Origin: Bacteroidota bacterium | GTDB lineage: Bacteria > Bacteroidota > Ignavibacteria > Kryptoniales > JAKASW01 | Direction: 5' to 3' | NCBI GenBank assembly: GCA_021789975.1 | Contig: JAJYIT010000009.1 | Location: forward strand, 14,557-78,556 | DNA length: 64,000 nt | Shown: one piece after another, positions 41,159 through 58,232 of the stretch | Numbering within the stretch: position 1 is the first letter of the stretch | How the letters are laid out: every line of letters starts with the position of its first letter | Made by a program: the position numbers and the translations under genes | The notes under the pieces: model-generated | Seen by the model: the letters and a program-made list of their open reading frames with translations, nothing else | What the model was told of the DNA's origin: nothing | The model's database searches: none

Positions 41159-41187
41159 TTGACATCTCCCTATCAAGTGAATATATT
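41159..41187 (+). promoter_or_regulatory. Near-consensus sigma70-type promoter upstream of the ROK regulator
   Basis: TTGACA (41159-41164), a 17-nt spacer, then TATATT (41182-41187), lying 57 nt upstream of the GTG start at 41244. Confidence 0.55.
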
Positions 41188-42526: not shown

Positions 42527-45064
42527 ATGAAGAACTGGTATATAACGGGGTCCTTACTACTCTTACTTGTTAGGGGACCTGCTCTAGGGAACGACTTGCC
42601 GAATCCCGAGACTCGTGGCGTGTGGATTAGTGAGGACTACTTGACGGGCGGGCCAAGTGCAATCAACTCAATGATGAGGACGATAAGCGACGAGAACTTC
42701 AACGTTGTCTACGTCGAGGTGTATTCCCATGGTTCAACGATCTATCCAAGTGCGGTAATGAGCAACGCGGGAGGAGTCGTCCAGAACCATACCTTTGCAG
42801 GGACCGATCCGTTGAGTACCATTATTCAAATTGCTCACAATTATGGAATAGAAGTCTTCGCATGGTTTGCGAGTCCTTTCCTCCTTTCTCAGAACAGCGA
42901 CTCGACGCAAGTTCCGGCAATCCTTGTGAAACATCCCGACTGGTCTTTTGTACAACGCGATACAACGAAACATTATTACCCGCCGCACGGTGATTATGGA
43001 TACTCATTTGAACTGGATCCGAATGTTCCTGCGGTTGCAAACTTTGTGGCAGAACTCTTCACCGAATGTGCAAAAGATCATCCGGACCTTGATGGGATTG
43101 AAAATGATATGGAAAATGACACTACCGGCTCGTACTCCGAGATCGCCCGAACCCGCTTCATGGAGGAGACCGGCAATCCTGATCCTCTGACTTTACCGGA
43201 CACCAACTCCGCATGGCTGGCGTGGCGGTGTCTTCAGGTGACTAACATCGTCAAAGGTATTTACCAAGGTGTGAAAAGTGTCAACCCGCAATGCGTAGTG
43301 AGCGCTGCCGTTGATCCACCATACTATGGTGTGAAGATAGAATCGTGGGACGTTTGGGCCAAGGACAGCTACGACGATATCCTGGAGCCTATGCTGTATC
43401 TGCCGACAAGCATCTTCGATTCACAGACAGAATGGTGCGTAGGCAACGTGCCATCTGGTTTCAAGCTGTCGGCCGGCGTAGCGATCAATTCTGCAGGGTC
43501 GGTAGCAAATGCTGTCTACGAAATGCGAGATGCAAGAAAGAGAGGTCTCAGCGGGATCGTCGTCTGGTACTACGGATATCTGCTCACATATGCTAATGCT
43601 CTTACGGATTTGAAATCTCAGATGTTTCCTGAGAAGGCTCTTCCAAGTTTTGACGACCTCTTGATTGACGACTCAGACCAGGGACAATTTCGCACAACGG
43701 GTTCATGGGATACCGCCGCCGGGGGTTATGAAGGGACTTATCATTCTGCACCAGCAGTTGCAGGTGACACCGCCGTCTTTTCACAACGCATTCTTCGAAG
43801 TGGAAGCTATACTCTTTACGGTTTTTGGTCGGGTGATTCGAGTACTAACTGCAATGTCGCGATCGTGCAAACGAGCTCGAGCGGATCCGTCAAGTCAGAC
43901 AGCATTAACGAGAGGGAGGATTTGAGTTCCTGGACCTATATCGACAAATTTGATTTAACATCAGGGGACACTGTGACGATCAAATTGTCCGGAACCGATG
44001 GTGAAAATTTGATCGCCGATGCGTTTAGGTTGAGAAGGGGCACCCCTTTTATCATGGATGACTACGCAGTTCCCGATAGTCAGTCAATCCTGCTGAAGTT
44101 CTCCGATCCGCTTCTTACACCGATGGCTTCTATAACTTCCGTATCCGCATCTCCTCCAGAAAGTGGTGTTAGTGCCTTCGTGGATGCGAGTGATAATACG
44201 ATTCTGCACGTTGTGATGCCTCCTTTGCAACAAGGTGTTCCACTGACCCTTGATGTAAAGAAATTGCTTGATGCATCCTATGATACATTGAGCTTTTCGC
44301 AGGTAGTCGCTTACAATCCCGACAGTACAACACTCATCATTGATGATGGAACGGCTAATGGCTTTTGGAAGTTGTCCGGCGCCTGGCAGGAAGACACAAG
44401 CGAGTCTGCAATTACCGGGAGCTATTGGGCGGCGAAGCAAGGAGCGCAGACGGACCGAATAAGGTGGGGACCTATTGAGGTGAAGGAGGATGGATATTAC
44501 GACTTGTATGCGCATATACCGAAGAGTAACGCACTTCTATCGACGAGGTGCCTTTATGTTATCAATGACGAGTACGGCACCGATTCTGTGTACGCCTCGC
44601 AGGCGGCCGCTGCCGGAACATGGATGGAGCTTGGCAATCTGCCCTTCACTGCAGGAGAACAGTTCGCTCCGTCGCTGACCTCATTGGCGGGGTCTGATAC
44701 CGGTCAATACCTCGTGGCAGACGCTGTCATGTTGACCCGGTCCGTGGAGTTTGCGACTGTTATCGACAACGCGCCGAAGTCTGCGAACGATTTCATGATC
44801 TACCAGAATTATCCAAACCCTTTTAATCCTCAGACAGTGATCCCGTTCAAGCTTGGAGGAAAGGCCGAAGTAAACGTGGTCGTGTACGATGTCCTCGGCC
44901 AAGAAATATCTCAGCTGCTTGATGACAAGACATTAGGCGCCGGAACATGGGACATCCGGTTTAACGGCTCACTACTTCCGAGTGGTATTTACTTTGCCCT
45001 GGTAACAATAAAAGGAAGCACCTACGAGAATCGAAAGATTCTGAAGATGCTCCTCTTGAAATAA
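42527..45064 (+). CDS. Secreted GHL10/DUF187-like TIM-barrel protein with two beta-sandwich modules, an Ig-like linker and a T9SS C-terminal sorting domain (paralog A)
   Basis: Signal peptide. ETRGVWIS...NFNVVYVEVYSHGSTIYPS...AWFASPFL...DGIENDMEND resembles glycosyl-hydrolase-like family 10. C-terminus YQNYPNPFNPQTVIPF...VYDVLGQE...GIYFALV...KMLLLK is a T9SS CTD. Confidence 0.75.
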   Translation: MKNWYITGSLLLLLVRGPALGNDLPNPETRGVWISEDYLTGGPSAINSMMRTISDENFNVVYVEVYSHGSTIYPSAVMSNAGGVVQNHTFAGTDPLSTIIQIAHNYGIEVFAWFASPFLLSQNSDSTQVPAILVKHPDWSFVQRDTTKHYYPPHGDYGYSFELDPNVPAVANFVAELFTECAKDHPDLDGIENDMENDTTGSYSEIARTRFMEETGNPDPLTLPDTNSAWLAWRCLQVTNIVKGIYQGVKSVNPQCVVSAAVDPPYYGVKIESWDVWAKDSYDDILEPMLYLPTSIFDSQTEWCVGNVPSGFKLSAGVAINSAGSVANAVYEMRDARKRGLSGIVVWYYGYLLTYANALTDLKSQMFPEKALPSFDDLLIDDSDQGQFRTTGSWDTAAGGYEGTYHSAPAVAGDTAVFSQRILRSGSYTLYGFWSGDSSTNCNVAIVQTSSSGSVKSDSINEREDLSSWTYIDKFDLTSGDTVTIKLSGTDGENLIADAFRLRRGTPFIMDDYAVPDSQSILLKFSDPLLTPMASITSVSASPPESGVSAFVDASDNTILHVVMPPLQQGVPLTLDVKKLLDASYDTLSFSQVVAYNPDSTTLIIDDGTANGFWKLSGAWQEDTSESAITGSYWAAKQGAQTDRIRWGPIEVKEDGYYDLYAHIPKSNALLSTRCLYVINDEYGTDSVYASQAAAAGTWMELGNLPFTAGEQFAPSLTSLAGSDTGQYLVADAVMLTRSVEFATVIDNAPKSANDFMIYQNYPNPFNPQTVIPFKLGGKAEVNVVVYDVLGQEISQLLDDKTLGAGTWDIRFNGSLLPSGIYFALVTIKGSTYENRKILKMLLLK

Positions 45065-45247
45065 CCATAAAGAATGCCTATGCGAATGAGTATGTATGGT
45101 GGTACAGCTACGTATTTGAGGTGAGATAATGATGACCCGTGCCCGTAAGATCCTGAAAAGTCCCGGTCTAAACGAATAGCCTAGACACGGCGGCCGTTAC
45201 ACCCGGGCGCATCGACATTTCGGTGTCAACCAAAAAGGAGAAAAGAC

Positions 45248-48200
45248 ATGAAAAGTTCTATCGATACTTTAAGAAGAGCTTTATCTGCTCCGATAGCAGC
45301 GTTTGCGGCAGTGCTTTTTTTATGGATTTTGATGTACAGTCGTGGATGGGCCCAACAGGTGTTTGCCGGACCGGACGGTTATTCGGCTTGTGCGATTGAC
45401 GCTAACGGCAATCTCTACACGTGGGGAATAGACCAATATTCACATACCGTCGTCACAGGTCCAGGCGGTAATGCGCAGGATCTGATTCCGGTGCAGGTTC
45501 CATTTCCGATTGGTGTGACAACATGGACGTCGGCATCTGTGGGCTATCTTTTCACCTTGGCAGTGGGTAACGACGGAAACGTTTATGCTTGGGGTCTCAA
45601 TTCTAGTGGTCAGCTAGGCAACGGGACAACAACGAATTCAAATACACCTGTGATGGTCAATTTACCCGGCGGAGTAAAAGCAAGGGCAGTGGCCGCAGGA
45701 ACCGCATTCGGCCTGGCCCTCGGCAGCGATGGCAATGTGTATGCGTGGGGGCTCAACTCTGGTGGCCAATTAGGCGACAGCACCACCACGAATTCATTCT
45801 TGCCTGTAATGGTCAAGATGCCCAGCGGGGTGACGGCGACCGCGATATTCGCCGGACCCGCTTTCAGCTTAGCTATCGGCAGCGACGGCAACACCTACGC
45901 GTGGGGAAGCAATGGGACGGGGCAGCTGGGAGATAGCACCACCACAAATTCGAGTATACCGGTTAGAACTCTGATGCCTGGTGGAGTGACAGCCACTGCG
46001 ATATCTGCCGGATCTTCCTTCAGTTTGGCAGTCGGCAGTGACGGAAACGTCTACGCGTGGGGTGGGAATGGTTTTGGACAATTAGGCAATGGCACAAAGA
46101 CAAACTCCAGCGTACCCCTTAAAGTTGACTTACCCAGTGGAGTAACGGCAAAGGCTGTGGCAGGAGGAAGACTCTTTGCTTCAGCAGTCGGAAGTGATGG
46201 AAACCTATACGCATGGGGAGACAACCTGTATGGCGAATTGGGTAACGACACTGTTGATGTACCGGCGAGCAATAGTTTACCGACCGTAGTGAAGCTTCCC
46301 GCCGGTGTCAGCGCAGAGGGAGTAACTGCAATACGCTGGTCCGGTTATGCTCTAGGAAGTAACGACAGCGTTTACGCGTGGGGGTACAACCAGGAAGGTG
46401 AGCTGGGAATAGGTACAAAAACAGGCGCGCCGAAATATGGGATAGCAACACCAACTGCGGACTCCGGGCTTGTTCTGGCCTTACCAGAAGTGCCAACCCT
46501 CCTGTCGCCGGCGAATGGCGCAATCAACCAGCCGACAACCACGGTGCTCACTTGGAGCAAATCTCCTGACGCTAACGGATACCAATGCGAAGTTTCACTC
46601 GATCCAACATTCACGACTCAGATTCTTTTGAACGATTCCACCTTGACGGATACTACTGATACCGCCAATGGCATGGCTACGGGGACCGTATACTATTGGC
46701 GCGTGCGTTCATACAACAGCACAATCTCGAGTGCGTTTTCCTCCGTATATTCCTTCACCACCAGCGCCCCATCTGCCACCGGACCGGAAATCATTGCCGG
46801 CCCTGACGGTTATTCAGCTTGTGTGATTGAGCCAAACGGCAAGCTTTACACATGGGGGATAGATCAGTATTCACATACGGTTGTCACCGGACCAAGTGGT
46901 AATGCACAAGATCTGACTCCAGTGCAGGTGGGATTTCCAAGTGGGGTTACAAGTTGGACATCTGCATCCGTGGGCTATCTTTTCACTTTAGCTATCGGTA
47001 ACAATGGTCAGGCTTATGCGTGGGGTCTCAACTCGAACGGCCAATTGGGAAACGGCACCACGACGAATTCCAACACACCAGTGCCTGTTGATTTGCCGAC
47101 CGGAGTGACTGCAAAGGCGGTATCGGCTGGGGAAGCTTTCGGTCTGGCCCTCGGCAGCGACGGCAATGTCTACGCATGGGGTCTCAACTCCAGCGGTCAG
47201 TTGGGCGACAGCACAACGGCAAGTTCCACCGCACCTGTGATTGTCAAATTGCCCAAAGGTGTGACTGCGACTGCGATATTTGCTGCACCAACTTTCGGCT
47301 TAGCGCTTGGCAACGATGGAAATGTTTATGGTTGGGGCACGAATTCGACGGGTCAGTTAGGTGACAGCACTACCACAAATTCCACCGTGCCTGTGGTAGC
47401 CAAGTTTCCGCGCGGTGTGAAAGCAACCGCGATATCTGCCGGATCATCGTTCAGCTTGGCGATAGGAAGCGACGGAAACGCCTACGCATGGGGTGGAAAT
47501 GGCTTTGAACAATTAGGGAACGGCACAAGTGCCAATTCCAGCGTACCTGTTAAAGTTGATTTACCAAGTGGAGTAACAGCTAAGGCAGTGGCTGGTGGAA
47601 GACTATTTTCTCTGGCCGTCGGCAGTGATGGCAACGCCTATGCCTGGGGGAATAATCTCTACGGACAATTAGGGGATGATAGTGTAAACGTGCCAGCAAA
47701 CGTCGGTATCCCCTCAGTGATCAGGCTGCCGAGTGGTGTGACTGCAACAGGGGTGGCCGGGATCCGCTTTTCTGCTTATGCATCTGCAAGCAATGATAGC
47801 GTCTACGCCTGGGGATATAATCAAGAGGGTGAACTTGGCCTCGGCATCAAAACGGGCGGCCCGAAGTACGGGATAGCAACACCCATGAGTATTTCTTTTG
47901 CCTCTGCGTTTTCGCCGGCGATCCCAACGCTTTTGTCGCCTGCAAATAATTCCGTTGACCAGCCGACTACAGTCGTGTTGAATTGGAACAAATCTGCTGG
48001 TGCAACAGGTTATCAATGCCAAGTCTCACTCGGTCCGACATTTTCCACGACGCTTGTTGCAGACGACTCAGCGTTGACGGACACTATGGACACTGTCTCG
48101 GGACTCACCGGTGGCACGACGTATTACTGGCGGGTTCGCTCGTACAATAACGTCGGCGCAAGCGCGTTTTCTGTAGCTGACTCATTCACAACGACGTCAG

Positions 48201-49105
48201 CTGCCCTTGGGACACCTGTTCTGGCTTTGCCATTGAACAATGCAACTTTCCAACGGGCGGATACTCTCGTACTAATGTGGAATAAGGTGGTAGGCGCGAG
48301 CGGATATGAAATCCAACTGTCTGAGAGCCTGGAATTTTCGAGCCTTGTTGCGAACGACTCAACTGCCGATACCGCGCAAACGTTGACGGAATTAAACAAC
48401 TCTCAGAAATACTACTGGCGCGTGCTGGCATTCAATACAGGTGGAGCAGGCCCATTCTCATCGCTGGATTCTTTCACTACTATTATGGCCGTTCCGGCAA
48501 TGCCTGCACCTGTTTCACCAGCTTTTTCGACCACGGGAGTCCCGCGCGCTGTAACTTTTTCATGGCGGAGATCCACTCTCGCAAGCAAGTACGTATTCCA
48601 GGTTGCGTTGAGCTCGCAGATTTATACTTCCGGCGACTCAGCCGGTTATTTCCAGAGCGCGGTCTTCGATACAACTCTGGCGGACACTGCATTCAAATTG
48701 TCCACACCGCTTCAACCCACCACGATTTACTACTGGCATATCAATGCAGTAGACACTGCCGGGAATACCGGGTTCTCAACCGCCTGGGAGTTCAAGACCG
48801 GGACAGGCGTTGATGCTGTAAACGAGCCTAATGGTATTCCGAAAGCATTCAGTCTTTCGCAGAATTATCCGAATCCATTTAACCCATCGACTACCATCAG
48901 GTATTCCCTACCGAAGGCTCAGATGGTGACCCTGAGAGTCTATAATATTCTAGGTCAAGAGGTTGCCACGCTCGTCGACGCAGCACAGAATCCCGGGTAC
49001 TATGAAGTGAGCTTCAACGCCGACCGTTTTGCAAGTGGCGTGTACTTCTATGTTTTGCGGACTCAGAGCTTCAGCTCGATACATAAGATGTTATTATTGA
49101 AATGA
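45248..49105 (+). CDS. Secreted double RCC1-repeat beta-propeller protein with FN3-like modules and a T9SS sorting domain (RCC1-A)
   Basis: AAGGAG RBS and signal peptide. Two sets of ~7 blades of the form DGN.YAWG.N..GQLG..TT.NS..PV. Repeated ~85-aa modules have the pattern LSP.N......L.W......Y..Q.S....F....YYWRV. C-terminal QNYPNPFNPSTTIRY...VYNILGQEV...GVYFYVL...KMLLLK. Confidence 0.85.
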   Translation: MKSSIDTLRRALSAPIAAFAAVLFLWILMYSRGWAQQVFAGPDGYSACAIDANGNLYTWGIDQYSHTVVTGPGGNAQDLIPVQVPFPIGVTTWTSASVGYLFTLAVGNDGNVYAWGLNSSGQLGNGTTTNSNTPVMVNLPGGVKARAVAAGTAFGLALGSDGNVYAWGLNSGGQLGDSTTTNSFLPVMVKMPSGVTATAIFAGPAFSLAIGSDGNTYAWGSNGTGQLGDSTTTNSSIPVRTLMPGGVTATAISAGSSFSLAVGSDGNVYAWGGNGFGQLGNGTKTNSSVPLKVDLPSGVTAKAVAGGRLFASAVGSDGNLYAWGDNLYGELGNDTVDVPASNSLPTVVKLPAGVSAEGVTAIRWSGYALGSNDSVYAWGYNQEGELGIGTKTGAPKYGIATPTADSGLVLALPEVPTLLSPANGAINQPTTTVLTWSKSPDANGYQCEVSLDPTFTTQILLNDSTLTDTTDTANGMATGTVYYWRVRSYNSTISSAFSSVYSFTTSAPSATGPEIIAGPDGYSACVIEPNGKLYTWGIDQYSHTVVTGPSGNAQDLTPVQVGFPSGVTSWTSASVGYLFTLAIGNNGQAYAWGLNSNGQLGNGTTTNSNTPVPVDLPTGVTAKAVSAGEAFGLALGSDGNVYAWGLNSSGQLGDSTTASSTAPVIVKLPKGVTATAIFAAPTFGLALGNDGNVYGWGTNSTGQLGDSTTTNSTVPVVAKFPRGVKATAISAGSSFSLAIGSDGNAYAWGGNGFEQLGNGTSANSSVPVKVDLPSGVTAKAVAGGRLFSLAVGSDGNAYAWGNNLYGQLGDDSVNVPANVGIPSVIRLPSGVTATGVAGIRFSAYASASNDSVYAWGYNQEGELGLGIKTGGPKYGIATPMSISFASAFSPAIPTLLSPANNSVDQPTTVVLNWNKSAGATGYQCQVSLGPTFSTTLVADDSALTDTMDTVSGLTGGTTYYWRVRSYNNVGASAFSVADSFTTTSAALGTPVLALPLNNATFQRADTLVLMWNKVVGASGYEIQLSESLEFSSLVANDSTADTAQTLTELNNSQKYYWRVLAFNTGGAGPFSSLDSFTTIMAVPAMPAPVSPAFSTTGVPRAVTFSWRRSTLASKYVFQVALSSQIYTSGDSAGYFQSAVFDTTLADTAFKLSTPLQPTTIYYWHINAVDTAGNTGFSTAWEFKTGTGVDAVNEPNGIPKAFSLSQNYPNPFNPSTTIRYSLPKAQMVTLRVYNILGQEVATLVDAAQNPGYYEVSFNADRFASGVYFYVLRTQSFSSIHKMLLLK
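45365..48226 (+). repeat. In-frame tandem duplication (2 x 1431 bp = 2 x 477 codons) inside RCC1-A
   Basis: GCCGGACCGGACGGTTATTCGGCTTGT at 45365 realigns with GCCGGCCCTGACGGTTATTCAGCTTGT at 46796. Similarity then continues through a whole propeller plus one FN3-like module. The copies are clearly diverged, with many third-position differences. Confidence 0.85.
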
Positions 49106-49232
49106 CCCGGAGGCCGACTCGCTTATCTATCATCACATGAAAAGTGAGTCGCACCTGGTATGAGTGCCGGTGCGCGTCTGTCGAACCGGCTTTCTAATCC
49201 AGTGGAAATTCATTGAGAGGAGGAATAGCACG

Positions 49233-51080
49233 ATGGAATCGATTGTTTTCTTGAGGAAGTTGCTCTCCATTTCGTCACTGATCTTTGCATTGTTCGTACT
49301 CTCGATCACATTAAGATGTGTGCGTGTCTCGGCACAGCAAGTTTTTGCTGCTCCGTCAGGTTACTCCGCGTGTGCGATCGACGCTAATGGGAACCTCTAT
49401 ACGTGGGGATGCGACAACTATAATCATACAGTTGTCTCCGCCAGGGCTCCGCAGGATCTTACCCCAGTCGAGGTAGCTTTACCCGCCGGGGTATCAAGTT
49501 GGGAGACCGCATCCCCAGGGGCCTATTACACTATAGCACTAGGCAGCGATGGCAACATCTTCGCATGGGGATACAACGCCAACGGTGAATTAGGAGACAG
49601 CAGCACAGCAAACAGCCCCACGCCCGTTAAGGTTGTTTTGCCGGCGGGAGTGACATCCTGGACTGCAATCGCAGCCGGCGATAGTTTCAATTTAGCAGTC
49701 GGAAATGACGGCAACCTCTATGCATGGGGAGCAAATTCTCAAGGCCAATTAGGTGACGATACGACGATGGAGTCTACCGTACCTGTAAAAGTTGATCTGC
49801 CATCCGGAGTGACGGCTACCAAAATTGCAGCTGGTGAGCAGTTTGCAGCGGTCATCGGATCCGATGGAAAAATCTATGTCTGGGGAACCAACGACAACGG
49901 ACAGCTGGGCACCGGCTCTTCCACCCCTGCTCGTTCCTCTGTACCTCTGCCCGTCAGTCTCCCTAACGGAATAACCCCGGTGGCTATTTCAACCGGCAGG
50001 AGTTTTTGTCTCGTCATCGGTAATGATGGGAACATTTACGGTTGGGGAGGCAATAGCAGCGGACAGTTGAATAACTCTGCTACTTTCGGAAAACTTGATT
50101 ACACGCCGGTTGTAGCCGCCAAACCCAGTGGAGTAACTTCGTGGAGAAAAGCCGTTGGAGGAGGTGAAGGTTTTTCACTCGGTATCGGTAGTGACGGGAA
50201 ACTTTATGCATGGGGGTACAACGGTCTCGGTGAATTGGGTATCGGCAGCACCGCTGCGACCAACGCCGCCAACGATTCGGCGCAGGCTGTGGTTTTGCCG
50301 CCGGGCGAAACTGTGCTGACGATGGCCGCAAGCGACTACTCTGACTATGCCATTGCCGGCGAAGGCGATACGCTTTATGCATGGGGGTACAACCAGCAGG
50401 GAGAAATCGGCAAGAATACTACGACGACAGATCAGTTATTGCCTACAAAAGTTCTGGGAGTCGGGGGAGTTGGGTACCTGACTCTATCGTCTGCACCATC
50501 GGCTCCTTCTTTAGTTTCACCGAATGACATAACCGGTGTCCCGCGAAGCGCGACCTTGATTTGGAATTCAGTTCACGGGGCCACAACGTATGAGTTGCAG
50601 GTGGCCACGGGAATCCACTTTTATTTTTCGTCCATTGTCGCTGATACGACTCTTCAGGATACCACTGTAACGCTGTCAAGTCCTCTTGCGTCTGTCACCA
50701 AATACTACTGGCGGGTTGTTGCCACCGGGAGCAATTTTACATCTCCATATTCCGCAGTCGATTCATTCACAACTGGCACGGGAATTACTGCTATCCAATT
50801 TGCGAATGAAACAGCGAGGAGGTTTGCCCTTTTTCAGAATTATCCCAATCCTTTTAACCCGACGACTGTCATCAGATATGATCTTCCAAAATCCGAGTTC
50901 GTTTCCCTATCAGTCTTCAATGTTCTTGGCCAGAGAGTTGCCACGCTTGTCGATGCTCCGAAAGCTTCCGGAGATTATCAGGTGTACTTTAGCGCCAACG
51001 GTTTGGCGAGTGGGACATACTTCTATACTCTCCAACAGGGACATAATGTCATCACAAGAAAGATGGTTCTTCTCAGATGA
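49233..51080 (+). CDS. Secreted RCC1-repeat beta-propeller protein with FN3-like module and T9SS sorting domain (RCC1-B, divergent)
   Basis: ATG 49233 lies 10 nt after GAGGAGG. Signal peptide LIFALFVLSITL...SAQQ. RCC1 blades (DGNIFAWGYNANGELGD, DGNLYAWGANSQGQLGD and others). CTD FQNYPNPFNPTTVIRY...VFNVLGQRV...GTYFYTL...KMVLLR. The track ORF starts at 49164. Confidence 0.85.
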   Translation: MESIVFLRKLLSISSLIFALFVLSITLRCVRVSAQQVFAAPSGYSACAIDANGNLYTWGCDNYNHTVVSARAPQDLTPVEVALPAGVSSWETASPGAYYTIALGSDGNIFAWGYNANGELGDSSTANSPTPVKVVLPAGVTSWTAIAAGDSFNLAVGNDGNLYAWGANSQGQLGDDTTMESTVPVKVDLPSGVTATKIAAGEQFAAVIGSDGKIYVWGTNDNGQLGTGSSTPARSSVPLPVSLPNGITPVAISTGRSFCLVIGNDGNIYGWGGNSSGQLNNSATFGKLDYTPVVAAKPSGVTSWRKAVGGGEGFSLGIGSDGKLYAWGYNGLGELGIGSTAATNAANDSAQAVVLPPGETVLTMAASDYSDYAIAGEGDTLYAWGYNQQGEIGKNTTTTDQLLPTKVLGVGGVGYLTLSSAPSAPSLVSPNDITGVPRSATLIWNSVHGATTYELQVATGIHFYFSSIVADTTLQDTTVTLSSPLASVTKYYWRVVATGSNFTSPYSAVDSFTTGTGITAIQFANETARRFALFQNYPNPFNPTTVIRYDLPKSEFVSLSVFNVLGQRVATLVDAPKASGDYQVYFSANGLASGTYFYTLQQGHNVITRKMVLLR

Positions 51081-53608
51081 AGGCTCTCCGCTACATCGTG
51101 ATATTTCTAGCCGCGTTTCCATTGAAGTTGGCGTTGGCGGGATATCTTCCCAATCCACAAACTCGCGGTGTTTGGATAAGTCAGAGCTATTTGACCGGCG
51201 GGGTCACCGGGATTGAAACCATGATAAGAAATTTGAGCAATGCAAACATCAATGTAATCTACGTTGAGGTTTACACTCACGGCGAGACCATATTCCCTAG
51301 CGCGGTAATGCAAAATGCGGGCGGGATTATTCAGAACCCGACGTTTGCAGGCACCGATCCACTCAAAACCGTAATCGATGTCGCCCACAAATATGGTATC
51401 CAGGTCTTTGCATGGTTCGCGAGCCCTTTCCTGTTGTCGCAGAGCAGTGATCCCACCCAGGTACCTTCGATTCTTTTGAGGCATCCCGAATGGACCGCCG
51501 TTCCTCGCGATACATCGGATAATTTCTTTCCGCCGAACGGCGGTTACGGTTATTCCTTTGGGATTGATCCAAGCATTGCAGGTGCAGCGAATTTCGTAAT
51601 TGATCTCGAAACAGAATGTGCAAGGAATTATCCCGATATCGATGGGATAGAGACTGACATCGAAAACGATACGACCGGTTGGTATGGCGATAGCACACGT
51701 GCACTCTTCATGATGGAAACCGGAAGCGCCGATCCACTGACCTTGCCTCCGACGGATCGTGCATGGTTTGCCTGGCGGCAGCTCCAGGTGACAAAGGTTG
51801 TCAGAAGAATTTATGGGAGTGTAAAGAGCGTAAATCCCAAATGCGTTGTCAGTGCGGCCGTACCACCACCTTATATGTCAAGCTACTCACTTGAAAATTG
51901 GTCTCTTTGGACAGATAGCGGCTACGTTGATGCGGTCGAGCCGATGCTTTATCTATCTTCCGGAAGTTTTGGCAGCGAATTGAGTGTATGCAGAACTTAC
52001 GTCCCAAACGGATTCGAGATGTTTCCCGGAGTAGACATTAGCACTGCCGGATCGTTTTCGAATGCACTTAATGAAATGAAGGATGCAGTTGCTGGAGACC
52101 CCGGATTGATTATTTGGTACTACGGATACCTGTTGTCTTCTCCAGGATCATTTGCCACTTTGAAATCAGACCTGTTCACAGTAAAAACGCTCCCGAGCTT
52201 CGACGACATAATAATTGACAATTACGGCGCTGGGGAGTTTCATACGACCGGATCATGGAGCACAGAACGCGGCGGGCTCGGCGGCTACGGTGGAACTTAC
52301 CTGTCTGCTGCGGCGGTACCAGGCGATACGGCGATCTTCTCGCAACGAATATTCAGGAGTGGCAGTTACGACTTGTATGGCTACTGGCCCGGTGATTCAT
52401 CGTCGAACTGTGCAGACGTCGTGGTACAGGCTGTGACAAATGAGTTCAGTAATGTCGACACCATCGATGAGAAATTTAACATTAGCGCATGGCATTATAT
52501 AGAAAACCTCTATCTGAACTCCGGTGAAACTGTGAACATAAAGTTGTACGGGAATGATGTCGGTAACCTGATTGCCAACGCATTCAGGCTGAGACGAGCC
52601 AATCAATTCTTGTTAAGTGATTATGCAGTTCAGGATAGCCAGATCGTCCTGCTCAAGTTCTCAAACCCCTTGCTTACCCCCGTGCCGCAAGTAACCTCCG
52701 TGTTCACGTCACTCGGGAAATCTAACATCAGTTTCTTCGTCGATCCTCTTGACAATACAATACTGCACGTTGTCGTTCCGCCGTTGCCTCAGGGCAAACC
52801 GTTTACTATGTACATTGGCAATCTCGTGGATGAGTCTTACGATACCTTAAAAGTCTCACAGGTGATGGATTATGATCCTGACAGTACTACGCTTGTAGCA
52901 GACGACCAGACTTCAAACTCGTTTATGAAGTTGTCGGGGGTTTGGATCCAGGACACGAGTTATTCAGCGATCAATGGTGAATATTGGCTTTCGCGACAGG
53001 GCTCGCAAATTTCGAAAGTCGAGTGGGGGCCGATCGATGTGACAAAAGATGGATACTATAATGTCTATGCCCATATTCCAAATACGCAGTTGCAGCTCTC
53101 CGGTCGATGCGCATATGTCGTAGAGAATGAGACAGGGGGCGATTCAGTTTATGCTTCCCAGGATTCAGGAAATGGTGGTTGGATAAATCTCGGGAACTTC
53201 CCATTTAGTCCGGGTGAGGAATCTGCGGTTTTCCTTTCTTCGTTGCCGGGAGCGAGTACGAGTCAATATGTTGTTGCGGATGCCGTGATGCTAACGAGGT
53301 CGGTTGAGATAACTGGTGTGAAGAAGCCGGTGGAGGCGATTTTGGAGAAATTCGCGCTCAGCAACAATTATCCGAATCCATTCAACCCGACGACGACTGT
53401 TGATATTAGCCTGCCTGAAAGCGGGATTATGAGTCTTAACATATACAACGTGCTTGGTCAACTGATCAAAGTCGTCGATGGCGGATACAAGTCCGCTGGT
53501 GACTACAATTATTTGGTCAACATGGATGGATTCGCGAGCGGCGTATACTTCTACAGACTTCAACAAGGCTCGGACGTGATAACAAAGAAGATGGAATTGC
53601 TCAAATGA
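51077..53608 (+). CDS. Secreted GHL10/DUF187-like protein with T9SS sorting domain (paralog B)
   Basis: Same architecture as paralog A (QTRGVWIS...NINVIYVEVYTHGETIFPS...AWFASPFL...DGIETDIEND). CTD NNYPNPFNPTTTV...IYNVLGQL...GVYFYRL...KMELLK. ATGA overlap with RCC1-B. Confidence 0.75.
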   Translation: MKALRYIVIFLAAFPLKLALAGYLPNPQTRGVWISQSYLTGGVTGIETMIRNLSNANINVIYVEVYTHGETIFPSAVMQNAGGIIQNPTFAGTDPLKTVIDVAHKYGIQVFAWFASPFLLSQSSDPTQVPSILLRHPEWTAVPRDTSDNFFPPNGGYGYSFGIDPSIAGAANFVIDLETECARNYPDIDGIETDIENDTTGWYGDSTRALFMMETGSADPLTLPPTDRAWFAWRQLQVTKVVRRIYGSVKSVNPKCVVSAAVPPPYMSSYSLENWSLWTDSGYVDAVEPMLYLSSGSFGSELSVCRTYVPNGFEMFPGVDISTAGSFSNALNEMKDAVAGDPGLIIWYYGYLLSSPGSFATLKSDLFTVKTLPSFDDIIIDNYGAGEFHTTGSWSTERGGLGGYGGTYLSAAAVPGDTAIFSQRIFRSGSYDLYGYWPGDSSSNCADVVVQAVTNEFSNVDTIDEKFNISAWHYIENLYLNSGETVNIKLYGNDVGNLIANAFRLRRANQFLLSDYAVQDSQIVLLKFSNPLLTPVPQVTSVFTSLGKSNISFFVDPLDNTILHVVVPPLPQGKPFTMYIGNLVDESYDTLKVSQVMDYDPDSTTLVADDQTSNSFMKLSGVWIQDTSYSAINGEYWLSRQGSQISKVEWGPIDVTKDGYYNVYAHIPNTQLQLSGRCAYVVENETGGDSVYASQDSGNGGWINLGNFPFSPGEESAVFLSSLPGASTSQYVVADAVMLTRSVEITGVKKPVEAILEKFALSNNYPNPFNPTTTVDISLPESGIMSLNIYNVLGQLIKVVDGGYKSAGDYNYLVNMDGFASGVYFYRLQQGSDVITKKMELLK

Positions 53609-56142
53609 AGAAAGCCTGCTTGATTGGAATATTTATTGTCGCAACTTTCGGAAAGAACGCGCTGGCGAAGAATTTTCCCGCACCTGAGACTCGCGGTGTC
53701 TGGATTAGTGAAGAGTATCTGACCGGTGGGCCGAGTGCAATTGAATCGGTAATTAGAAATGTGAGCGCCGCAAATTTCAATGTCATTTACGTTGAGGCGT
53801 ATGCTTACGGCTCCACTATTTATCCGAGCAACGTGATAAGCAATGCCGGCGGTGTCCTCCAAAACCAGTCGTTTGTAGGTTCTGATCCGATGAAGACGAT
53901 TATTCAAGTTGCTCACAGTTATGGTATAGAAGTCGTCGCATGGTTTGCCAGTCCATTCCTGATATCTCAGGGTGGAAGCCCGACTCAGGTGCCTTCGATT
54001 CTCGTTAAACACCCGGACTGGGCCGCGGTCCAGCGAGATACAACTAAACACTATTTTGGACCAAACGGCGCATATGGTTATTCTTTTGAAATTGATCCAT
54101 GTGTGCTTGCAGCTGCGAACTTCATGGTCAACCTCTTTACGGAATGCGCCAGGGATTACCCTCAGCTTGATGGGATAGAATCGGACATTGAGAATGACAC
54201 TACCGGCTGGTACGGAGATAGTACCCGAGCTCTCTTCATGAGAGAAACAGGGGAGGCGGATCCACTGACGCTCGCGCCCTGGGACCCAAGCTGGCTTGCT
54301 TGGCGACGACAGGAAGTAACCAATCTTGTTGCCAGGATTTACCAGGGCATCAAATCCGTAAACTCCCAATGTGTTGTAACTGCTGCTGTTGATCCACCTT
54401 ACTACGGGCAACAGTGGAAACTCGAATCCTGGGATGTGTGGTCGAAAAACAACTATGTCGACATGCTGGAACCTATGCTGTACATGTCGACATCTATCTA
54501 TGATTCTCAATTGGAATGGTGCATAGGGAACGTTCCATCTGGGTTCAGGTTGTCCGCAGGTATCGGGATTAGCTATGCTGGTTCGGTAGCCAACGCCATC
54601 TCTGAAATCCGGGATACGAGAGCGAAAGGAGTTACGGGAATTGTAATCTGGCATTATGGGAATTTGCTGTCCTATCCGGGTGCCCTGACGCAGCTGAAGA
54701 CACAAGCTTTCACTCAGAACACACTTCCGAGCTATGACGATCTTCTGATCGATGATGTGGGGCAGGGTCAGTTTCACACGACAGGCACATGGAACGCTGA
54801 AAGCGGAGGGTATGGAGGTACGTATCGATCAGCATCTGCCGTTCAAGGTGACACGGCGTTATTTTCCGAGAGAGTCCTTAGAAGCGGCAATTACGCTCTT
54901 TACGGCTACTGGTCCGGTGATTCGGTTTCTAATTGTTCACGCGCAACGGTTCAGACTACCACATCGACCGTGAGCAAGACTGATACGATCAATCAGAAAT
55001 TAAATTTGAACTCCTGGCAATACGTCGATACGTTCTACCTTAACTCCGGCGATACTGTTGACGTGAAGCTATCGGGCGTCGGCGGTGGAAATTTGATCGC
55101 AGACGCGTTTCAGTTAAGACGAAGCAATCCTTATATCCATTTTTCGCTGAACGATGATGCGGTTCCTGACAGTGAGTCAATCCTGTTGAAGTTTTCCGAT
55201 CCGCTTCTCACTCCACTGGCTTCGATAACATCGATTTCGACAACTCCGCCAGAGAGCGGTGTGAGTGCCTTTGTCGATGCAGGTGACAATACGATACTTC
55301 ACGTTGTGGTACCACCGATGCAACAGGGTGTGCCGTTGACCTTAAATGTGAGTAATCTTCTGGATGCATCGTATGACACATTGAGCTTTTCACAAGTTGT
55401 CACTTATGACCCTGACAGCACAACGTTTATCATAGATGACGCGACTCCAAATATGTTTTGGAAGCTATCGGGAGTCTGGAATCAAGACACGAGTGGATCG
55501 GCTGTCGGTGGTAACTATTGGATGGCGAAGCAGGGGGCGCAGGTAGATCGCGTGAGGTGGGGACCGCTCACGGTAGAGGAGAATGGCTACTATGACGCGT
55601 ATGTACAAATCCCGGAAAGCCGTTTGCCGTTGTCCATACGGTGCCTCTACATTGTCAACGACGAATTTGGCACCGACTCCGTATACGCTTCGCAGGCAGC
55701 TGCAGCTGGTACATGGATGAAACTTGGCAATCTACCATTTAGCGCTGGTGAGCAGTTTGCTCCGTCATTGACCTCTGTAGCTGGGTCCGACACTGGACAG
55801 TACCTTGTTGCGGATGCGGTAATGTTGACGAGGTCTGTAGAGTTTGCAACCGGCGTGCAGGGGGTTGCCAAAGAGTCGATGAAGTTCCAGCTCAGCCAGA
55901 ACTATCCGAACCCCTTCAACCCAACGACCGCAATTGAGTACACGATTCCGAAGTCGGGACAGCTTACGCTGAAAGTCTATGACATTTTGGGCAGAGCTGT
56001 AGAGACTCTCGTCGACAGGAATGAGAATGCGGGAGGACACATCGTTCAATTCGATGGGTCACGGTTTGCCAGTGGAGTTTATTTTTACGTATTGAGGACT
56101 GGCAATCTCGTAGCGATACATAAGATGCTGCTTCTGAAATGA
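53605..56142 (+). CDS. Secreted GHL10/DUF187-like protein with T9SS sorting domain (paralog C)
   Basis: Same architecture. It is the paralog closest to A: about 70% identity by eye over the first ~130 mature residues. CTD QNYPNPFNPTTAIEY...VYDILGRAV...GVYFYVL...KMLLLK. ATGA overlap with paralog B. Confidence 0.75.
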   Translation: MKKACLIGIFIVATFGKNALAKNFPAPETRGVWISEEYLTGGPSAIESVIRNVSAANFNVIYVEAYAYGSTIYPSNVISNAGGVLQNQSFVGSDPMKTIIQVAHSYGIEVVAWFASPFLISQGGSPTQVPSILVKHPDWAAVQRDTTKHYFGPNGAYGYSFEIDPCVLAAANFMVNLFTECARDYPQLDGIESDIENDTTGWYGDSTRALFMRETGEADPLTLAPWDPSWLAWRRQEVTNLVARIYQGIKSVNSQCVVTAAVDPPYYGQQWKLESWDVWSKNNYVDMLEPMLYMSTSIYDSQLEWCIGNVPSGFRLSAGIGISYAGSVANAISEIRDTRAKGVTGIVIWHYGNLLSYPGALTQLKTQAFTQNTLPSYDDLLIDDVGQGQFHTTGTWNAESGGYGGTYRSASAVQGDTALFSERVLRSGNYALYGYWSGDSVSNCSRATVQTTTSTVSKTDTINQKLNLNSWQYVDTFYLNSGDTVDVKLSGVGGGNLIADAFQLRRSNPYIHFSLNDDAVPDSESILLKFSDPLLTPLASITSISTTPPESGVSAFVDAGDNTILHVVVPPMQQGVPLTLNVSNLLDASYDTLSFSQVVTYDPDSTTFIIDDATPNMFWKLSGVWNQDTSGSAVGGNYWMAKQGAQVDRVRWGPLTVEENGYYDAYVQIPESRLPLSIRCLYIVNDEFGTDSVYASQAAAAGTWMKLGNLPFSAGEQFAPSLTSVAGSDTGQYLVADAVMLTRSVEFATGVQGVAKESMKFQLSQNYPNPFNPTTAIEYTIPKSGQLTLKVYDILGRAVETLVDRNENAGGHIVQFDGSRFASGVYFYVLRTGNLVAIHKMLLLK

Positions 56143-56324
56143 GGCTCGATAAAATCCGTTAGAGAGTAGATATAAGATGGTACAGACACATGTTGTCAAC
56201 GAGGTTATGGAAACTTAATGGCAGAAAAACCTTAAACTCCTGTCTTACTATGTACTCACTACACTGGCGTCACCACAGCGAAATGAATATGCTCGTTGGA
56301 GCTAACAAGAATAGGAGTAAGCTT

Positions 56325-58157
56325 ATGAAAGATTCTATTGTCTATTTAAGAAAACCCTACCGCACTCCAATAGCGATCTTTAGAATGGCATTTGTTTTCG
56401 CGATGTTGACCTATGCTCCTTTGCGCGCTCAACAAGTTATTGCGGGGCCGGATGGTTATTCGGGTTGCGCGATTGATGCGAGTGGTAATCTGTACACATG
56501 GGGAATCGATCAGTATTTTCAGACGGTTGTCAGCACCACTGCCGGCCACACACAGGATCTCTCGCCGGTCCAGGTTGGATTTCCCACTGGCGTGACGAGC
56601 TGGACATCAGCATCGGTAGGCTACCTCTTCACACTTGCAATCGGCAATGACGGGAATGCCTATGCCTGGGGTTTGAATTCCAACGGTCAACTGGGCAACG
56701 GCACCACAACGAATTCAAGTGTGCCGGTCATGGTTGCACTCCCAAGCGGGGTGACCGCGAAAGCCGTGGCTGCCGGAGAAGGTTTCTCTTTGGCTCTTGG
56801 CAGTGACGGAAACGTCTATGCATGGGGGCTTAACTCGCTCGGCCAATTGGGCGACAGCACGACGACAAATTCAAACTCACCTGTGATGGTCAAGTTACCC
56901 GGTGGAGTGTCAGTGAAGGCAATCTTTGCCGCTCCAGGATTCAGCCTGGCTCTGAGTACCGACGGAAGCATCTATGCCTGGGGAGGGAATTCCACGGGAC
57001 AATTGGGCGACAGCACGACGACAAACTCGACAATTCCCGTCAAGGTGGATTTGCCGACTGGAGTTACCGCAGAAGCGATTTCTGCCGGGTCTTCCTTCGG
57101 GTTGGCAATTGGCAGCGATGGAAATCTGTACTCTTGGGGGGGGAATGGCTTCGGACAATTAGGTGATGGGACAAAGACGAATTCCAGTGTCCCGGTCAAG
57201 GTTCACTTGCCAACTGGAGTTGGTGCCAAGGCAGTTACAGGCGGAAGACTTTTTGCAGCCGCAATTGGCAGCGATGGAAACATATACACCTGGGGCGACA
57301 ACTTATATGGTGAATTGGGTAACGGTACAGTTGATGTGCCAAAAAGTGACAGCTTGCCAGAGGCGATCCCCTTGCGAAAAGGAGTAACCGCACTGGGGAT
57401 TACCGCAATCCGCTGGTCCGGCTTCGTTCTCGGAAGTGACGACAGTGTTTATGCATGGGGGTACAATCAGGAAGCTGAACTTGGTCTCGGTTACGGAACC
57501 GGCGGTCCTAAGTACGCCGTTGGATCACCTGCAATCATCTCCGGTCTCGTCTTAGGTTCGCCGCTTAGCAATAATCCCGCCATACCTGTCCTCGTTTCGC
57601 CCTCAGCTGGCACAACAAGTATTCCGAGGAAAGCAACCCTGGTGTGGAATTCCTCCAGTCAGGCAACATCGTACCATCTGCAAATCTCTCCGAGTCCCGT
57701 TTTCACCACAATCACATTCGACACTACGATGGCCGATACATCCGTTAAACTATCTGCTCCTCTGACAGCTGAAACCTGGTACTATTGGCACGTCAGTGCT
57801 TCTGACACTTCCGGGTCGAGTGGCTTTTCCGCAGTGGACAGTTTTGAAACAGGGACGGGGATCGATGGGATAGATCAGCAAATGAACTTTCCGAGGCAAT
57901 TTGCACTTCTGCAGAATTATCCTAATCCTTTCAACCCGTCGACCGTAATCGGATACAACGTGGCTGCGCCAAGCATGGTCAGAATCAGCGTGTACAACGT
58001 GCTGGGTGAGAAAGTAGCGGCTTTGGTAGATGGGGTGATGCCGCCCGGTCAGTACACCCTCACCTTTGACGGAAGCAAGCTTGCCAGCGGACTGTACTTC
58101 TACCGCATGACGGCAGGACATTTCGTCTCCGTGAAAAAGTTTCTGCTTATGAAGTAG
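56325..58157 (+). CDS. Secreted RCC1-repeat beta-propeller protein with FN3-like module and T9SS sorting domain (RCC1-C)
   Basis: ATG 56325 is preceded by AGGAG. Signal peptide. The propeller is very similar to both halves of RCC1-A (TSWTSASVGYLFTLAIGNDGNAYAWGLNSNGQLGNGTTTNS). CTD QNYPNPFNPSTVIGY...VYNVLGEKV...GLYFYRM...KFLLMK. The track ORF starts at 56190. Confidence 0.85.
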   Translation: MKDSIVYLRKPYRTPIAIFRMAFVFAMLTYAPLRAQQVIAGPDGYSGCAIDASGNLYTWGIDQYFQTVVSTTAGHTQDLSPVQVGFPTGVTSWTSASVGYLFTLAIGNDGNAYAWGLNSNGQLGNGTTTNSSVPVMVALPSGVTAKAVAAGEGFSLALGSDGNVYAWGLNSLGQLGDSTTTNSNSPVMVKLPGGVSVKAIFAAPGFSLALSTDGSIYAWGGNSTGQLGDSTTTNSTIPVKVDLPTGVTAEAISAGSSFGLAIGSDGNLYSWGGNGFGQLGDGTKTNSSVPVKVHLPTGVGAKAVTGGRLFAAAIGSDGNIYTWGDNLYGELGNGTVDVPKSDSLPEAIPLRKGVTALGITAIRWSGFVLGSDDSVYAWGYNQEAELGLGYGTGGPKYAVGSPAIISGLVLGSPLSNNPAIPVLVSPSAGTTSIPRKATLVWNSSSQATSYHLQISPSPVFTTITFDTTMADTSVKLSAPLTAETWYYWHVSASDTSGSSGFSAVDSFETGTGIDGIDQQMNFPRQFALLQNYPNPFNPSTVIGYNVAAPSMVRISVYNVLGEKVAALVDGVMPPGQYTLTFDGSKLASGLYFYRMTAGHFVSVKKFLLMK

Positions 58158-58232
58158 GTGCATCCGCTCACGCTGGAAATATCAATGGAGAAGTTCGTTG
58201 AACGCGAACCGAATCAAGAAGGAGGGATACAA

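Follow-up and report, generated by a model that had tools for sequence, protein, structure and literature searches.

What do two types of predicted secreted proteins do when their genes stand side by side three times over on one strand? The array lies in the 64,000-nucleotide (nt) stretch of DNA that was analyzed as a whole (the window), where positions 42527 to 58157 of the + strand hold six consecutive open reading frames (ORFs). These encode only two protein types, as the first-pass annotation had stated, although their order is G1-R1-R2-G2-G3-R3 and not the strict G/R alternation that it described:

42527..45064, + strand: G1, a type 1 G protein with the AWFASPF variant
45248..49105, + strand: R1, a type 1 R protein of 1285 aa with two propellers
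49164..51080, + strand: R2, a type 2 R protein with a propeller, an FN3-like module and a T9SS sorting domain
51077..53608, + strand: G2, a type 2 G protein with G1-like architecture
53605..56142, + strand: G3, a type 1 G protein with G1-like architecture
56190..58157, + strand: R3, a type 1 R protein with a seven-bladed propeller, an FN3-like module and a T9SS sorting domain

Both types have a T9SS tail; in G proteins it is combined with a GHL10 TIM barrel and two Golvesin_C modules, which are CBM6/35/36-like, and in R proteins with FN3 modules and a seven-bladed propeller of the RCC1 type. Hidden Markov model (HMM) searches recovered every predicted match to GHL10, RCC1 and T9SS-CTD models. 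The common sorting domain said to end all six proteins was confirmed, with TIGR04183 above its cutoff in 6/6 (32 to 42 bits versus 23) and Por_Secre_tail matched by profile search in all three G and all three R proteins. Because the G paralogs are 56 to 66% identical to one another and the R propellers 52 to 82%, the array is, judging from its sequences, built by duplication and not by chance.

The three G proteins, previously described as GHL10-like and of ~845 aa, are 843 to 845 aa long and match PF02638 (GHL10) with 91 to 104 bits (cutoff, 27.9); each also contains two stretches of PF25275 (Golvesin_C) with 112 to 118 bits. An AF2 model of G1 (pLDDT, 85.6) agrees with the architecture proposed at first pass: a signal peptide is followed by the GHL10 TIM barrel (aa 29 to 365), a beta-sandwich (aa 377 to 504), an Ig-like module (aa 510 to 594), a second beta-sandwich (aa 602 to 739) and a type A T9SS sorting domain (about aa 762 to 843, from 769 in the AF2 model). 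The two beta-sandwiches can be specified further as Golvesin_C 1 and 2, i.e., CBM6/35/36-like. The structure closest to the G1 barrel is that of Cwp19 (5OQ3; Foldseek E, 2e-19; TM, 0.75). G3 is 66% identical to G1, G2 shares 68% identity with the G genes in the related loci L100 and L102, and the G2 and G3 genes overlap by 4 bp.

The three R proteins match WD40_RLD/RCC1 with 256 to 583 bits and carry fn3/Ig-like modules. They are three RCC1 proteins, as claimed, but contain four propellers, R1 being double. R1 (12 RCC1 repeats; WD40_RLD, 583 bits) starts with a signal peptide, followed by propeller A (about aa 39 to 400), an FN3 module, propeller B (about aa 516 to 880), three FN3/Ig-like modules and the sorting domain (aa 1207 to 1281). 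Its gene has a blade period of 156 nt and a 300-nt repeat at 45363 and 46794, and its two propellers (R1a and R1b) are 77 to 82% identical. The likely true starts of R2 and R3 are at 49233 (615 aa) and 56325 (610 aa), respectively, and the end of the R2 gene shares 4 bp with the beginning of the G2 gene. Among PDB structures, the R3 propeller matches UVR8 (TM, 0.91) and HERC2, RCC1 and RPGR (TM, 0.74 to 0.85) at 22 to 28% identity; several of these top matches were solved with partner proteins bound, and none is described as an enzyme.

The array is flanked by the following features:

37651..38919, - strand: N-acylglucosamine 2-epimerase (AGE) family protein
38909..40480, - strand: sodium:solute symporter (SSS), divergent from the ROK gene and conserved in related loci L089 and L099
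40516..40899, - strand: short CBM9_2-domain ORF of 127 aa (232 aa in the L099 counterpart)
41159..41187, + strand: sigma-70-like promoter match (TTGACA-17-TATATT, 11/12) upstream of the ROK gene
41244..42473, + strand: ROK-family regulator, NagC/Mlc-like with an N-terminal winged helix, at the head of the array
58158..59729, + strand: phosphoesterase-family protein (PF04185, phospholipase C/acid phosphatase type) with an N-terminal hydrophobic segment
59899..61908, + strand: FAD-dependent oxidoreductase (PF12831), a conserved neighbor of G genes
62000..64000, + strand: 5' part of the gene for a 717-aa protein, running past the window end

The ROK, SSS and AGE genes reported near the array were thus all found. 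The ROK protein matches ROK (200 bits) and MarR/TrmB HTH models, as well as a NagC model with 227 bits, under the cutoff of 650, and its gene has the same position in L089 and L099. The strong promoter ascribed to it is present as a site, but this is a consensus match only, and such matches occur in the region as often as expected from shuffling. In L089 and L099, AGE is followed by nagA and nagB, with SSS also adjoining. The PF04185 phosphoesterase adjoins the G-R pair in both loci and RCC1 genes in L101, and the PF12831 oxidoreductase is also found in L089, L099, L090 and L092. The 717-aa protein has no Pfam match, and genes of homologous length occur in L100 and L102.

The array forms part of a cluster that extends over more than 65 kb on one strand and includes seven GHL10 paralogs and TonB receptor, NAGPA, DUF4434, DUF5009, GH31, NanE and ROK genes. 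Of these, the downstream part of the contig contains NanE, DUF4855-ROK, GH31, two genes each for NAGPA and DUF5009, and four more GHL10 genes. At other G loci, GH20, a GH2 of the glucosaminidase type and DUF5009 are present. The statement that SusC and classical CAZymes are missing holds inside the array, but a TonB-dependent receptor and classical CAZymes (GH31) follow about 25 to 45 kb downstream on the same strand. The earlier proposal of a non-Sus, T9SS-dependent glycan locus fits the ROK gene, the sugar symporter, AGE and the nagA/nagB genes of relatives.

Trees of G and R mirror each other and contain two old pair types: in type 1, G precedes R (G1/R1 and G3/R3), and in type 2, R precedes G and overlaps it by 4 bp (R2/G2). 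Paralog identities of G and R match, in line with the mirrored trees. The adjacency expected in related genomes was found in three other assemblies, all related metagenome genomes, as two co-diverging pair types, but more distant G-family loci have no RCC1 gene beside them, limiting the adjacency to one G subclade. The gene order is ROK-G-R-FADox-phosphoesterase in L099, G-R(double)-G in L089 and DUF4434-R-G in L100 and L102, where R and G again overlap by 4 bp; an overlap of the R2-G2 type is seen in three genomes. No paper describing the pairing was found in the literature searched.

Because the pairing recurs in relatives and the array lies inside a putative amino-sugar scavenging cluster, G and R probably work together. 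The reading that we favor (probability, about 0.45) is that enzyme and propeller modules function jointly in a non-Sus, T9SS-dependent locus for foraging on amino-sugar polymers; what was observed directly is the domain content and folds of the proteins, the conservation and co-diversification of the pairs, and the gene context. The array would comprise three copies of a two-gene module, in which G is a putative divergent GHL10-type TIM-barrel glycanase with two CBM-like modules and R a presumably non-catalytic RCC1-like seven-bladed propeller on FN3 stalks. From their signal peptides and type A T9SS sorting domains, both proteins are expected to be exported across the outer membrane, and they would then be released or tethered to the cell surface and act together extracellularly. 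Binding of partner proteins is a function of known RCC1-like domains, and the most likely role of R is therefore to bind the G of its own pair, in a physical partnership, or else to hold the substrate polymer beside it; G would grip the polymer via its CBMs and then cleave or remodel it. These modules would be one layer of a larger foraging cluster associated with, and putatively regulated by, the NagC-like ROK protein, the rest providing a TonB-dependent receptor, more GH-like enzymes along with enzymes that cleave phosphodiesters, and HexNAc/ManNAc catabolism (AGE, NanE, ROK kinase; nagA/nagB in relatives). Given these phosphodiester-cleaving enzymes and this catabolism, the substrate is most likely a microbial cell-wall or matrix polymer that contains N-acetylhexosamine and is linked in part by phosphodiesters, with peptidoglycan glycan, teichoic-type polymers and PNAG-like polymers as candidates.

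G and R might instead be co-regulated yet independent, R being a general surface glycan-binding protein or adhesin that fills a SusD/E/F-like role without contacting G, and their adjacency reflecting only shared operon history and tandem duplication. Such a role would accord with the lack of a SusD gene in the cluster, the other G loci examined and L101, and with the secreted or surface RCC1 proteins, bearing other anchoring modules, that occur widely in Actinobacteria, Bifidobacteria, Chlamydiae and Hymenobacter. It would also suit L101, a TonB-receptor glycan locus with a more distant RCC1-CTD protein (43% identical), in which RCC1 genes are interleaved with DUF4855-CTD genes, not GHL10, beside the same phosphoesterase, GH92 and GH3. 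The glycan setting of this RCC1-CTD protein speaks for the favored foraging reading as well. Independence nevertheless seems unlikely in view of the strict link of R to one G subclade: among G genes with enough flank to judge, an RCC1 gene adjoins 8/8 of the AWFASPF type and 0/12 of the family-typical AWFE type, a count that represents essentially one or two evolutionary events and not independent replicates because the four adjacency genomes are related. The 4-bp R2-G2 overlap in three genomes and the mirrored trees are tighter than expected of a generic accessory, and the solved RCC1-like domains matched by R3 form complexes with proteins or chromatin, not glycans. Against the favored reading of joint action, more distant G-family genes work without a neighboring RCC1 gene.

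GHL10 had been considered a family without settled activity, but two members cleave peptidoglycan glycan: Cwp19 of Clostridioides difficile, a lytic transglycosylase of solved structure (PMC6016235, PMC5765458; PDB 5OQ2/5OQ3), and DigH (YddW, b1491) of E. coli, a divisome-localized hydrolase specific for denuded glycan (PMC12288456) that scores 453 bits on the GHL10 model. The G family departs from the peptidoglycan-active proteins at all three active-site motifs (NPYR to EYGF or ASPF, DDY to D[IMR]E/M, and PQ[IL]YWP to EPMLYL), and inference of substrate from GHL10 membership is therefore weak. Moreover, the array copies lack the E/N at the beta-3 end that is kept in every other GHL10 sequence examined, and they may not be hydrolases at all. 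Its replacement by A115 is confined to the AWFASPF subclade, and the E-type paralogs P0013, P0034 and P0067 are retained elsewhere on the contig, as would be expected if the array copies, each with two CBM-like modules, were inactive, lectin-like barrels in a G-R capture or scaffold complex and cutting of the polymer fell to the remaining GHL10 paralogs of the cluster, which have E115. We regard such inactivity as improbable: the G barrel is as conserved among paralogs (59 to 68%) as the other G domains, D194, E287, Y291 and G317 are kept, E162, nearby in sequence, is gained in most AWFASPF members and could compensate, and which residues of GHL10 are catalytic has not been settled (PMC5765458). 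That the pairs are weapons, secreted cell-wall-degrading enzymes that lyse neighbors with R as a targeting or adhesion partner, is more doubtful still, for although the only GHL10 enzymes whose cleavage has been assayed directly target peptidoglycan glycan, leading to lysis or cell separation (PMC6016235, PMC12288456), the G motifs are unlike theirs, the uptake and catabolic setting (symporter, AGE, TonB receptor, NanE, nagA/nagB) is typical of nutrition, and no immunity-like gene was seen.

Like the predicted G proteins, Cwp19 is an extracellular GHL10 protein with an N-terminal barrel followed by wall- or glycan-binding modules. Besides having the closest structure, it has residues in common with the G1 barrel (D195 = D194, the invariant Asp; Y297 = Y291; and a Gly at the beta-7 end), but the two are only 18% identical, and the NPYR, DDY and PQLYWP motifs of Cwp19 are replaced in G. 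Cwp19, which has no RCC1 partner, is anchored by CWB2 repeats; in G, their place is taken by Golvesin_C modules and a T9SS tail. DigH is likewise GHL10, and several G homologs are named "lipoprotein YddW (UPF0748)" by JGI. Unlike G, however, it is a 439-aa periplasmic lipoprotein that consists of the barrel alone, acts on its own cell wall, and retains the Cwp19-type motifs WFNPYR, FDDYFY and APQIYWP.

The R proteins share the seven-bladed propeller of eukaryotic RCC1-like domains (RCC1, UVR8, HERC2 and RPGR), several structures of which contain a bound partner protein, the role proposed for R. They differ in their predicted T9SS secretion, fusion to FN3 stalks, tandem duplication and location beside a glycanase-like gene; a guanine-nucleotide exchange or photoreceptor role is implausible outside the cell. 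The Streptomyces beta-lactamase inhibitor BLIP-II is likewise a seven-bladed RCC1 propeller and is comparable to R.

At the level of the cluster, the closest parallels are Bacteroidota PULs and T9SS-linked CAZyme clusters (e.g., those for T9SS-secreted multimodular cellulases and mannan-degrading enzymes), which also combine, on one strand, genes for a regulator, for a TonB-dependent receptor, for secreted multimodular glycan-active proteins bearing T9SS sorting domains, and for transport and catabolism. In contrast to PULs, the receptor here is without a SusD partner, the phylum of the host, an uncultured bacterium, is Kryptoniota-like and not Bacteroidota, and the enzymes belong almost entirely to unclassified GH-like families (GHL10, DUF4434, DUF4855 and DUF4985) and are paired with RCC1 propellers.

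The six genes of the array are consecutive open reading frames on the + strand (42527-58157 in the ORF listing) that encode two kinds of protein predicted to be secreted, one built on a GHL10 barrel (G) and one on an RCC1 propeller (R).

Genes of the array
42527-45064 (+): G1, 845 aa
45248-49105 (+): R1, 1285 aa
49164-51080 (+): R2, with a later start in public gene calls, giving 615 aa
51077-53608 (+): G2, 843 aa
53605-56142 (+): G3, 845 aa
56190-58157 (+): R3, with a later start in public gene calls, giving 610-635 aa

The first-pass annotation had described the domain content correctly, with GHL10, RCC1, and sorting-domain models all matched by Pfam/NCBIfam, but the alternation of G and R that it proposed is replaced by the order G-R-R-G-G-R. 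The RCC1 propellers are present as described, except that R1 holds two rather than one: it has 12 RCC1 repeats with a blade period of 156 nt, and a 300-nt stretch recurs within it at 45363 and 46794. A 4-bp overlap joins R2 to G2, and another joins G2 to G3; between pairs, neither intrinsic terminators nor internal promoters exceeded shuffle expectation. Judging from the type and gene order of the pairs, the array reads as (G1 R1)(R2 G2)(G3 R3), with a type-2 pair lying between two duplicated type-1 pairs. All six products carry the C-terminal sorting domain of type A T9SS cargo, as the first-pass annotation had read: TIGR04183 (also PF18962, Por_Secre_tail) scores 32.3 to 42.1 bits in 6/6 (cut-off, 23). 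Each has a hydrophobic N-terminal segment, read from the sequence as a possible Sec signal peptide, which in the R proteins ends in A-x-A/AQQ-like sites. Of the T9SS machinery, one PorP/SprF-like gene was seen, at the related locus L091.

Gene neighborhoods retrieved for homologs of G and R show the two genes side by side in three other assemblies, the simplest form being that of L099.

Homologous loci with adjacent G and R genes
L099 (GCA_023480735.1; G 73% identical): on one strand, nagB-nagA-AGE-SSS-CBM9, then ROK, small ORF, G, R (714 aa), FAD oxidoreductase, phosphoesterase
L089 (GCA_046705025.1): frame like that of L099, with G, double-propeller R (1087 aa), second G
L100 (second locus on the L089 contig) and L102 (another sample): DUF4434, 615-aa R, 843/844-aa G

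In neighbor-joining trees, the G and R families split alike into two types. Type-1 G genes (G1, G3, the L099 G, and both L089 G genes) precede their R, and type-1 propellers comprise R1a, R1b, R3, and that of L099; the L089 double-propeller R was left out of the tree because the motif search missed its propeller boundaries. In type 2, R precedes G, and both the G proteins (G2, L100, and L102; 68 to 70% identical) and the R proteins (R2, L100, and L102; 76 to 77% identical) group together. The R/G overlap in L100 and L102 is 4 bp, exactly matching the R2/G2 arrangement. The type-2 pair lies after DUF4434 in these relatives, and the DUF4434 site of the window's own genome is without it.

The adjacency that the first-pass annotation proposed to look for therefore recurs in three related assemblies but is absent at distant G loci. 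Six-frame phmmer searches placed no RCC1 propeller less than 10 kb from G at the distant loci L090/L096, L091, L093, L095, and L098, and none in the fetched loci around the other G paralogs of the window's contig (L007 and L092). Among G genes with enough flank to judge, an RCC1 gene adjoins 8/8 with the motif AWFASPF around the end of barrel strand beta-3, versus 0/12 with AWFE. Because the genomes are related, this split is a clade character that reflects one or two events and does not count as twenty separate trials, and the pairing is so far confined to one lineage. A scan of genome contigs with the full-length G alignment was dominated by the T9SS tail motif QNYPNPFN, mostly in unrelated cargo genes, with GHL10 sequence only in L010, L012, L028, L048, and L051; a scan of metagenome contigs with a tail-less alignment recovered 5 loci only.

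All three G proteins match Pfam GHL10 (PF02638) at 93.7 (G1), 104.3 (G2), and 91.2 (G3) bits (gathering score, 27.9), and each contains two Golvesin_C stretches (PF25275) at 112 to 118 bits (gathering score, 31.6). The AF2 model of G1 (pLDDT 85.6) bears out the two beta-sandwiches and the Ig-like module that had been predicted alongside GHL10.

Modules of G1 in the AF2 model
aa 29-365: eight-stranded barrel
aa 377-504: beta-sandwich 1
aa 510-594: Ig-like module
aa 602-739: beta-sandwich 2
aa 769-843: sorting domain

The Golvesin_C stretches form the beta-sandwiches, with xanthan lyase 6f2p and CBM6E among their Foldseek matches. The first Foldseek/PDB match to G1 is Cwp19 of C. difficile (5OQ3; E 2.4e-19, target-normalized TM 0.75, 18% identity), the sole solved GHL10 member, with which it shares a (beta/alpha)8 barrel. 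Contrary to the first-pass annotation, GHL10 does have reported activities: Cwp19, with its solved structure, is a lytic transglycosylase acting on peptidoglycan (PMC5765458, PMC6016235), E. coli DigH breaks down denuded glycan of peptidoglycan (PMC12288456), and maltose was reported as the product of Deinococcus DogH from soluble starch (PMC9967864). On the GHL10 model, DigH (the b1491 product) scores 453 bits.

Three conserved residues are common to G1 and Cwp19: an Asp at the end of beta-4 (D194 and D195, respectively), a Tyr at the end of beta-6 (Y291 and Y297), and a Gly at the end of beta-7 (G317 and G328). All three are invariant across 27 G-family sequences and occur in DigH and distant GHL10 sequences. 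In contrast, the G family lacks all three pocket motifs of Cwp19 and DigH (WF-N-P-Y-R, [F]D-D-Y, and P-Q-[IL]-Y-W-P); the same positions read WFASPF, D-[MI]-E, and EPMLY[LM] in G1 to G3. At the first of them, the rest of the family has WFEYGF; the other two read D-[IMR]-[EM] and EPMLYL across the G family. With the motifs replaced but the Asp, Tyr, and Gly kept, GHL10 membership stands and peptidoglycan specificity is not transferable to G, whose sequences make it a distinct GHL10 subfamily. A role for G as a DigH-like remodeler of the cell's own wall was rejected, since its T9SS tail and its CBM modules put it beyond the outer membrane.

The position at the end of beta-3 that is alanine in AWFASPF proteins (A115 in G1) is E or N in all other GHL10 sequences examined, including DigH and Cwp19, and AWFASPF barrels could accordingly be inactive and lectin-like. 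Most AWFASPF members have Glu162 (E-x-D-P; G1 numbering) in place of the A, W, or G of other members, and this may be a relocated, compensating acidic residue. G2, though of the AWFASPF type, has Gly at position 162.

The R proteins match WD40_RLD/RCC1 at 256 to 583 bits (cut-off, 150) and carry additional fn3/Ig-like modules. The AF2 model of R3 has seven four-stranded blades (propeller pLDDT >90), an FN3-like module, and the sorting domain, and its best structural matches are UVR8 (TM 0.91), HERC2, RCC1, and RPGR, all RCC1-like domains. Several of these structures were solved with a protein partner bound, and enzymatic activity is described for none. Certain propellers are lyases or hydrolases, but an enzymatic R of that type was rejected because the R3 model matches canonical RCC1 domains only. 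Secreted bacterial RCC1 relatives number at least 7807 at E <= 1e-20 (among 8000 scored candidates), and we know of none with an assigned function.

A more far-reaching reading is that an AWFASPF GHL10-Golvesin protein and its cognate RCC1 protein form an obligate extracellular heterodimer, in which the propeller positions the substrate or supplies the missing active-site function; we hold this tentatively, at roughly one chance in five. R might instead be an independent surface binding protein making no contact with G. There is also a TonB-receptor locus (L101) in which three RCC1-CTD genes, one encoding a distant RCC1-CTD protein (43% identical), are interleaved with DUF4855-CTD genes (CTD, T9SS C-terminal sorting domain) and followed by a phosphoesterase of the array-neighbor family, GH92, and GH3. 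Such a locus indicates that RCC1-CTD proteins are a recurrent accessory of T9SS/TonB glycan loci here, with partners beyond GHL10. An antagonistic, lytic role of G-R pairs is a further alternative.

The array is part of a larger cluster, which continues downstream of the window on the same contig and strand.

Genes downstream of the window, same strand as the array
~25 kb downstream: TonB-dependent receptor
after the receptor: two ~575-aa T9SS-tailed proteins
further members: NAGPA-CTD and DUF4623-CTD
fourth G (P0034)
DUF4434, DUF5009, NAGPA, and GH31
tail-less G (P0067)
GHL10-DUF4985 protein
fifth full-length G (P0013)
second ROK regulator and a DUF4855-ROK fusion
NanE, DUF5009, MFS transporter, and another FAD oxidoreductase

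This one contig carries seven GHL10 genes. Most enzymes of the L007/L092 supercluster (contig ~82-122 kb) belong to unclassified GH-like families; to our knowledge, GHL10, DUF4434, DUF4855, and DUF4985 barrels are not in the CAZy classification. Other G loci contain GH20, GH2 with a glucosaminidase Ig domain, an FGE-sulfatase-type protein, DUF5009, and NAGPA. As the first-pass annotation observed for the array, there is no SusC/SusD pair; adjacent SusC-like and SusD-like genes are absent throughout the window, and the SusD family had no match in any locus examined. In four loci (L007:465-4082, L090:271-1983, L091:2413-4137, and L101:667-2403), the TonB receptor is directly followed by a 570- to 580-aa protein in which Pfam recognizes the T9SS sorting domain alone, and which could be a SusD stand-in.

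The ROK protein upstream of G1 combines a ROK domain (200 bits) with a MarR/TrmB/HTH_24 winged helix at residues 20 to 75 and does not reach the NagC equivalog level (227 bits versus a cut-off of 650). A small ORF (83 to 96 aa, no Pfam match) separates ROK from the first G at L089:7628-7918 and L099:7059-7310; the window has a 53-bp gap alone. At L099:16533-22145, Mu-like phage genes (Phage_Mu_F and Portal_Mu) lie directly downstream of G-R-FADox-phosphoesterase, where the window's cluster continues. The CBM9_2 ORF at 40516-40899 (-) has 127 aa matching the C-terminal third of the model and may be a decaying gene; its counterparts are 232 aa in L099 and a 102-aa ORF without a match in L089. 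An ORF of 980 aa (called as 924 aa; 33400-36342, +), located between the genes for a GT4 glycosyltransferase and AGE, has a sub-threshold Melibiase match only (22.9 bits versus 27) and may encode a further GH-like protein outside the classified families. Two large AsmA/DUF748-like proteins are encoded at 4446-6857 (-; 803 aa) and 27492-31886 (+; 1464 aa). Upstream in the window are ordinary chromosomal housekeeping genes (enolase, citrate synthase, isocitrate dehydrogenase, and a beta-oxidation operon); the citrate synthase shares 72 to 76% identity with proteins of MAGs named Candidatus Kryptoniota or "Bacteroidetes bacterium," and the G homologs carry the names of Kryptobacter, Kryptoniota, Ignavibacteriales, or Bacteroidetes MAGs. 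The source is thus probably a Kryptoniota-like bacterium within the FCB group. Public copies of the window DNA are ENA ERZ27233565 k141_869435 (a 126-kb metagenome contig) and NCBI MAG GCA_021836605.1.

From what was observed, namely domain content, folds, gene context, and the conservation and co-diversification of the pairs, we infer a course in which G and R would both leave the cell via the T9SS, and R would bind its cognate G or hand substrate to it. G would bind and then cleave or remodel a polymer via its two CBM-like modules and variant barrel, and the products would be taken up by the receptor or symporter and channeled via AGE, NanE, ROK kinase, NagA, and NagB, the array being regulated by the ROK/winged-helix protein. 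The amino-sugar catabolic genes, two NAGPA (phosphodiester glycosidase) genes, and the phosphoesterase point with modest strength to N-acetylhexosamine polymers, partly phosphodiester linked, such as bacterial wall or matrix glycans. If such an amino-sugar polymer of cell wall or matrix is the substrate, the locus has a bearing on necromass turnover.

The co-diverging enzyme-propeller pair offers a concrete, testable way into two groups of proteins that are poorly understood and bears on how SusD-lacking bacteria of the Kryptoniota and Ignavibacteriota type capture polymers with T9SS cargo and a TonB receptor. A heterodimer, if true, would give a secreted RCC1 protein of bacteria its first assigned molecular role, and the pair would represent a new type of glycan-processing enzyme, made of two components and exported through the T9SS. 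Literature searches on RCC1 linked to T9SS cargo or GHL10, and on Kryptonia with T9SS, found no description of the pairing in the searchable library, so the prior characterization that the first-pass annotation had allowed for did not surface, and public annotations give automatic names only. A T9SS-linked glycan utilization cluster is a recognizable kind of locus; the new part is the conserved, co-diverging pair of a GHL10 variant and an RCC1 propeller.
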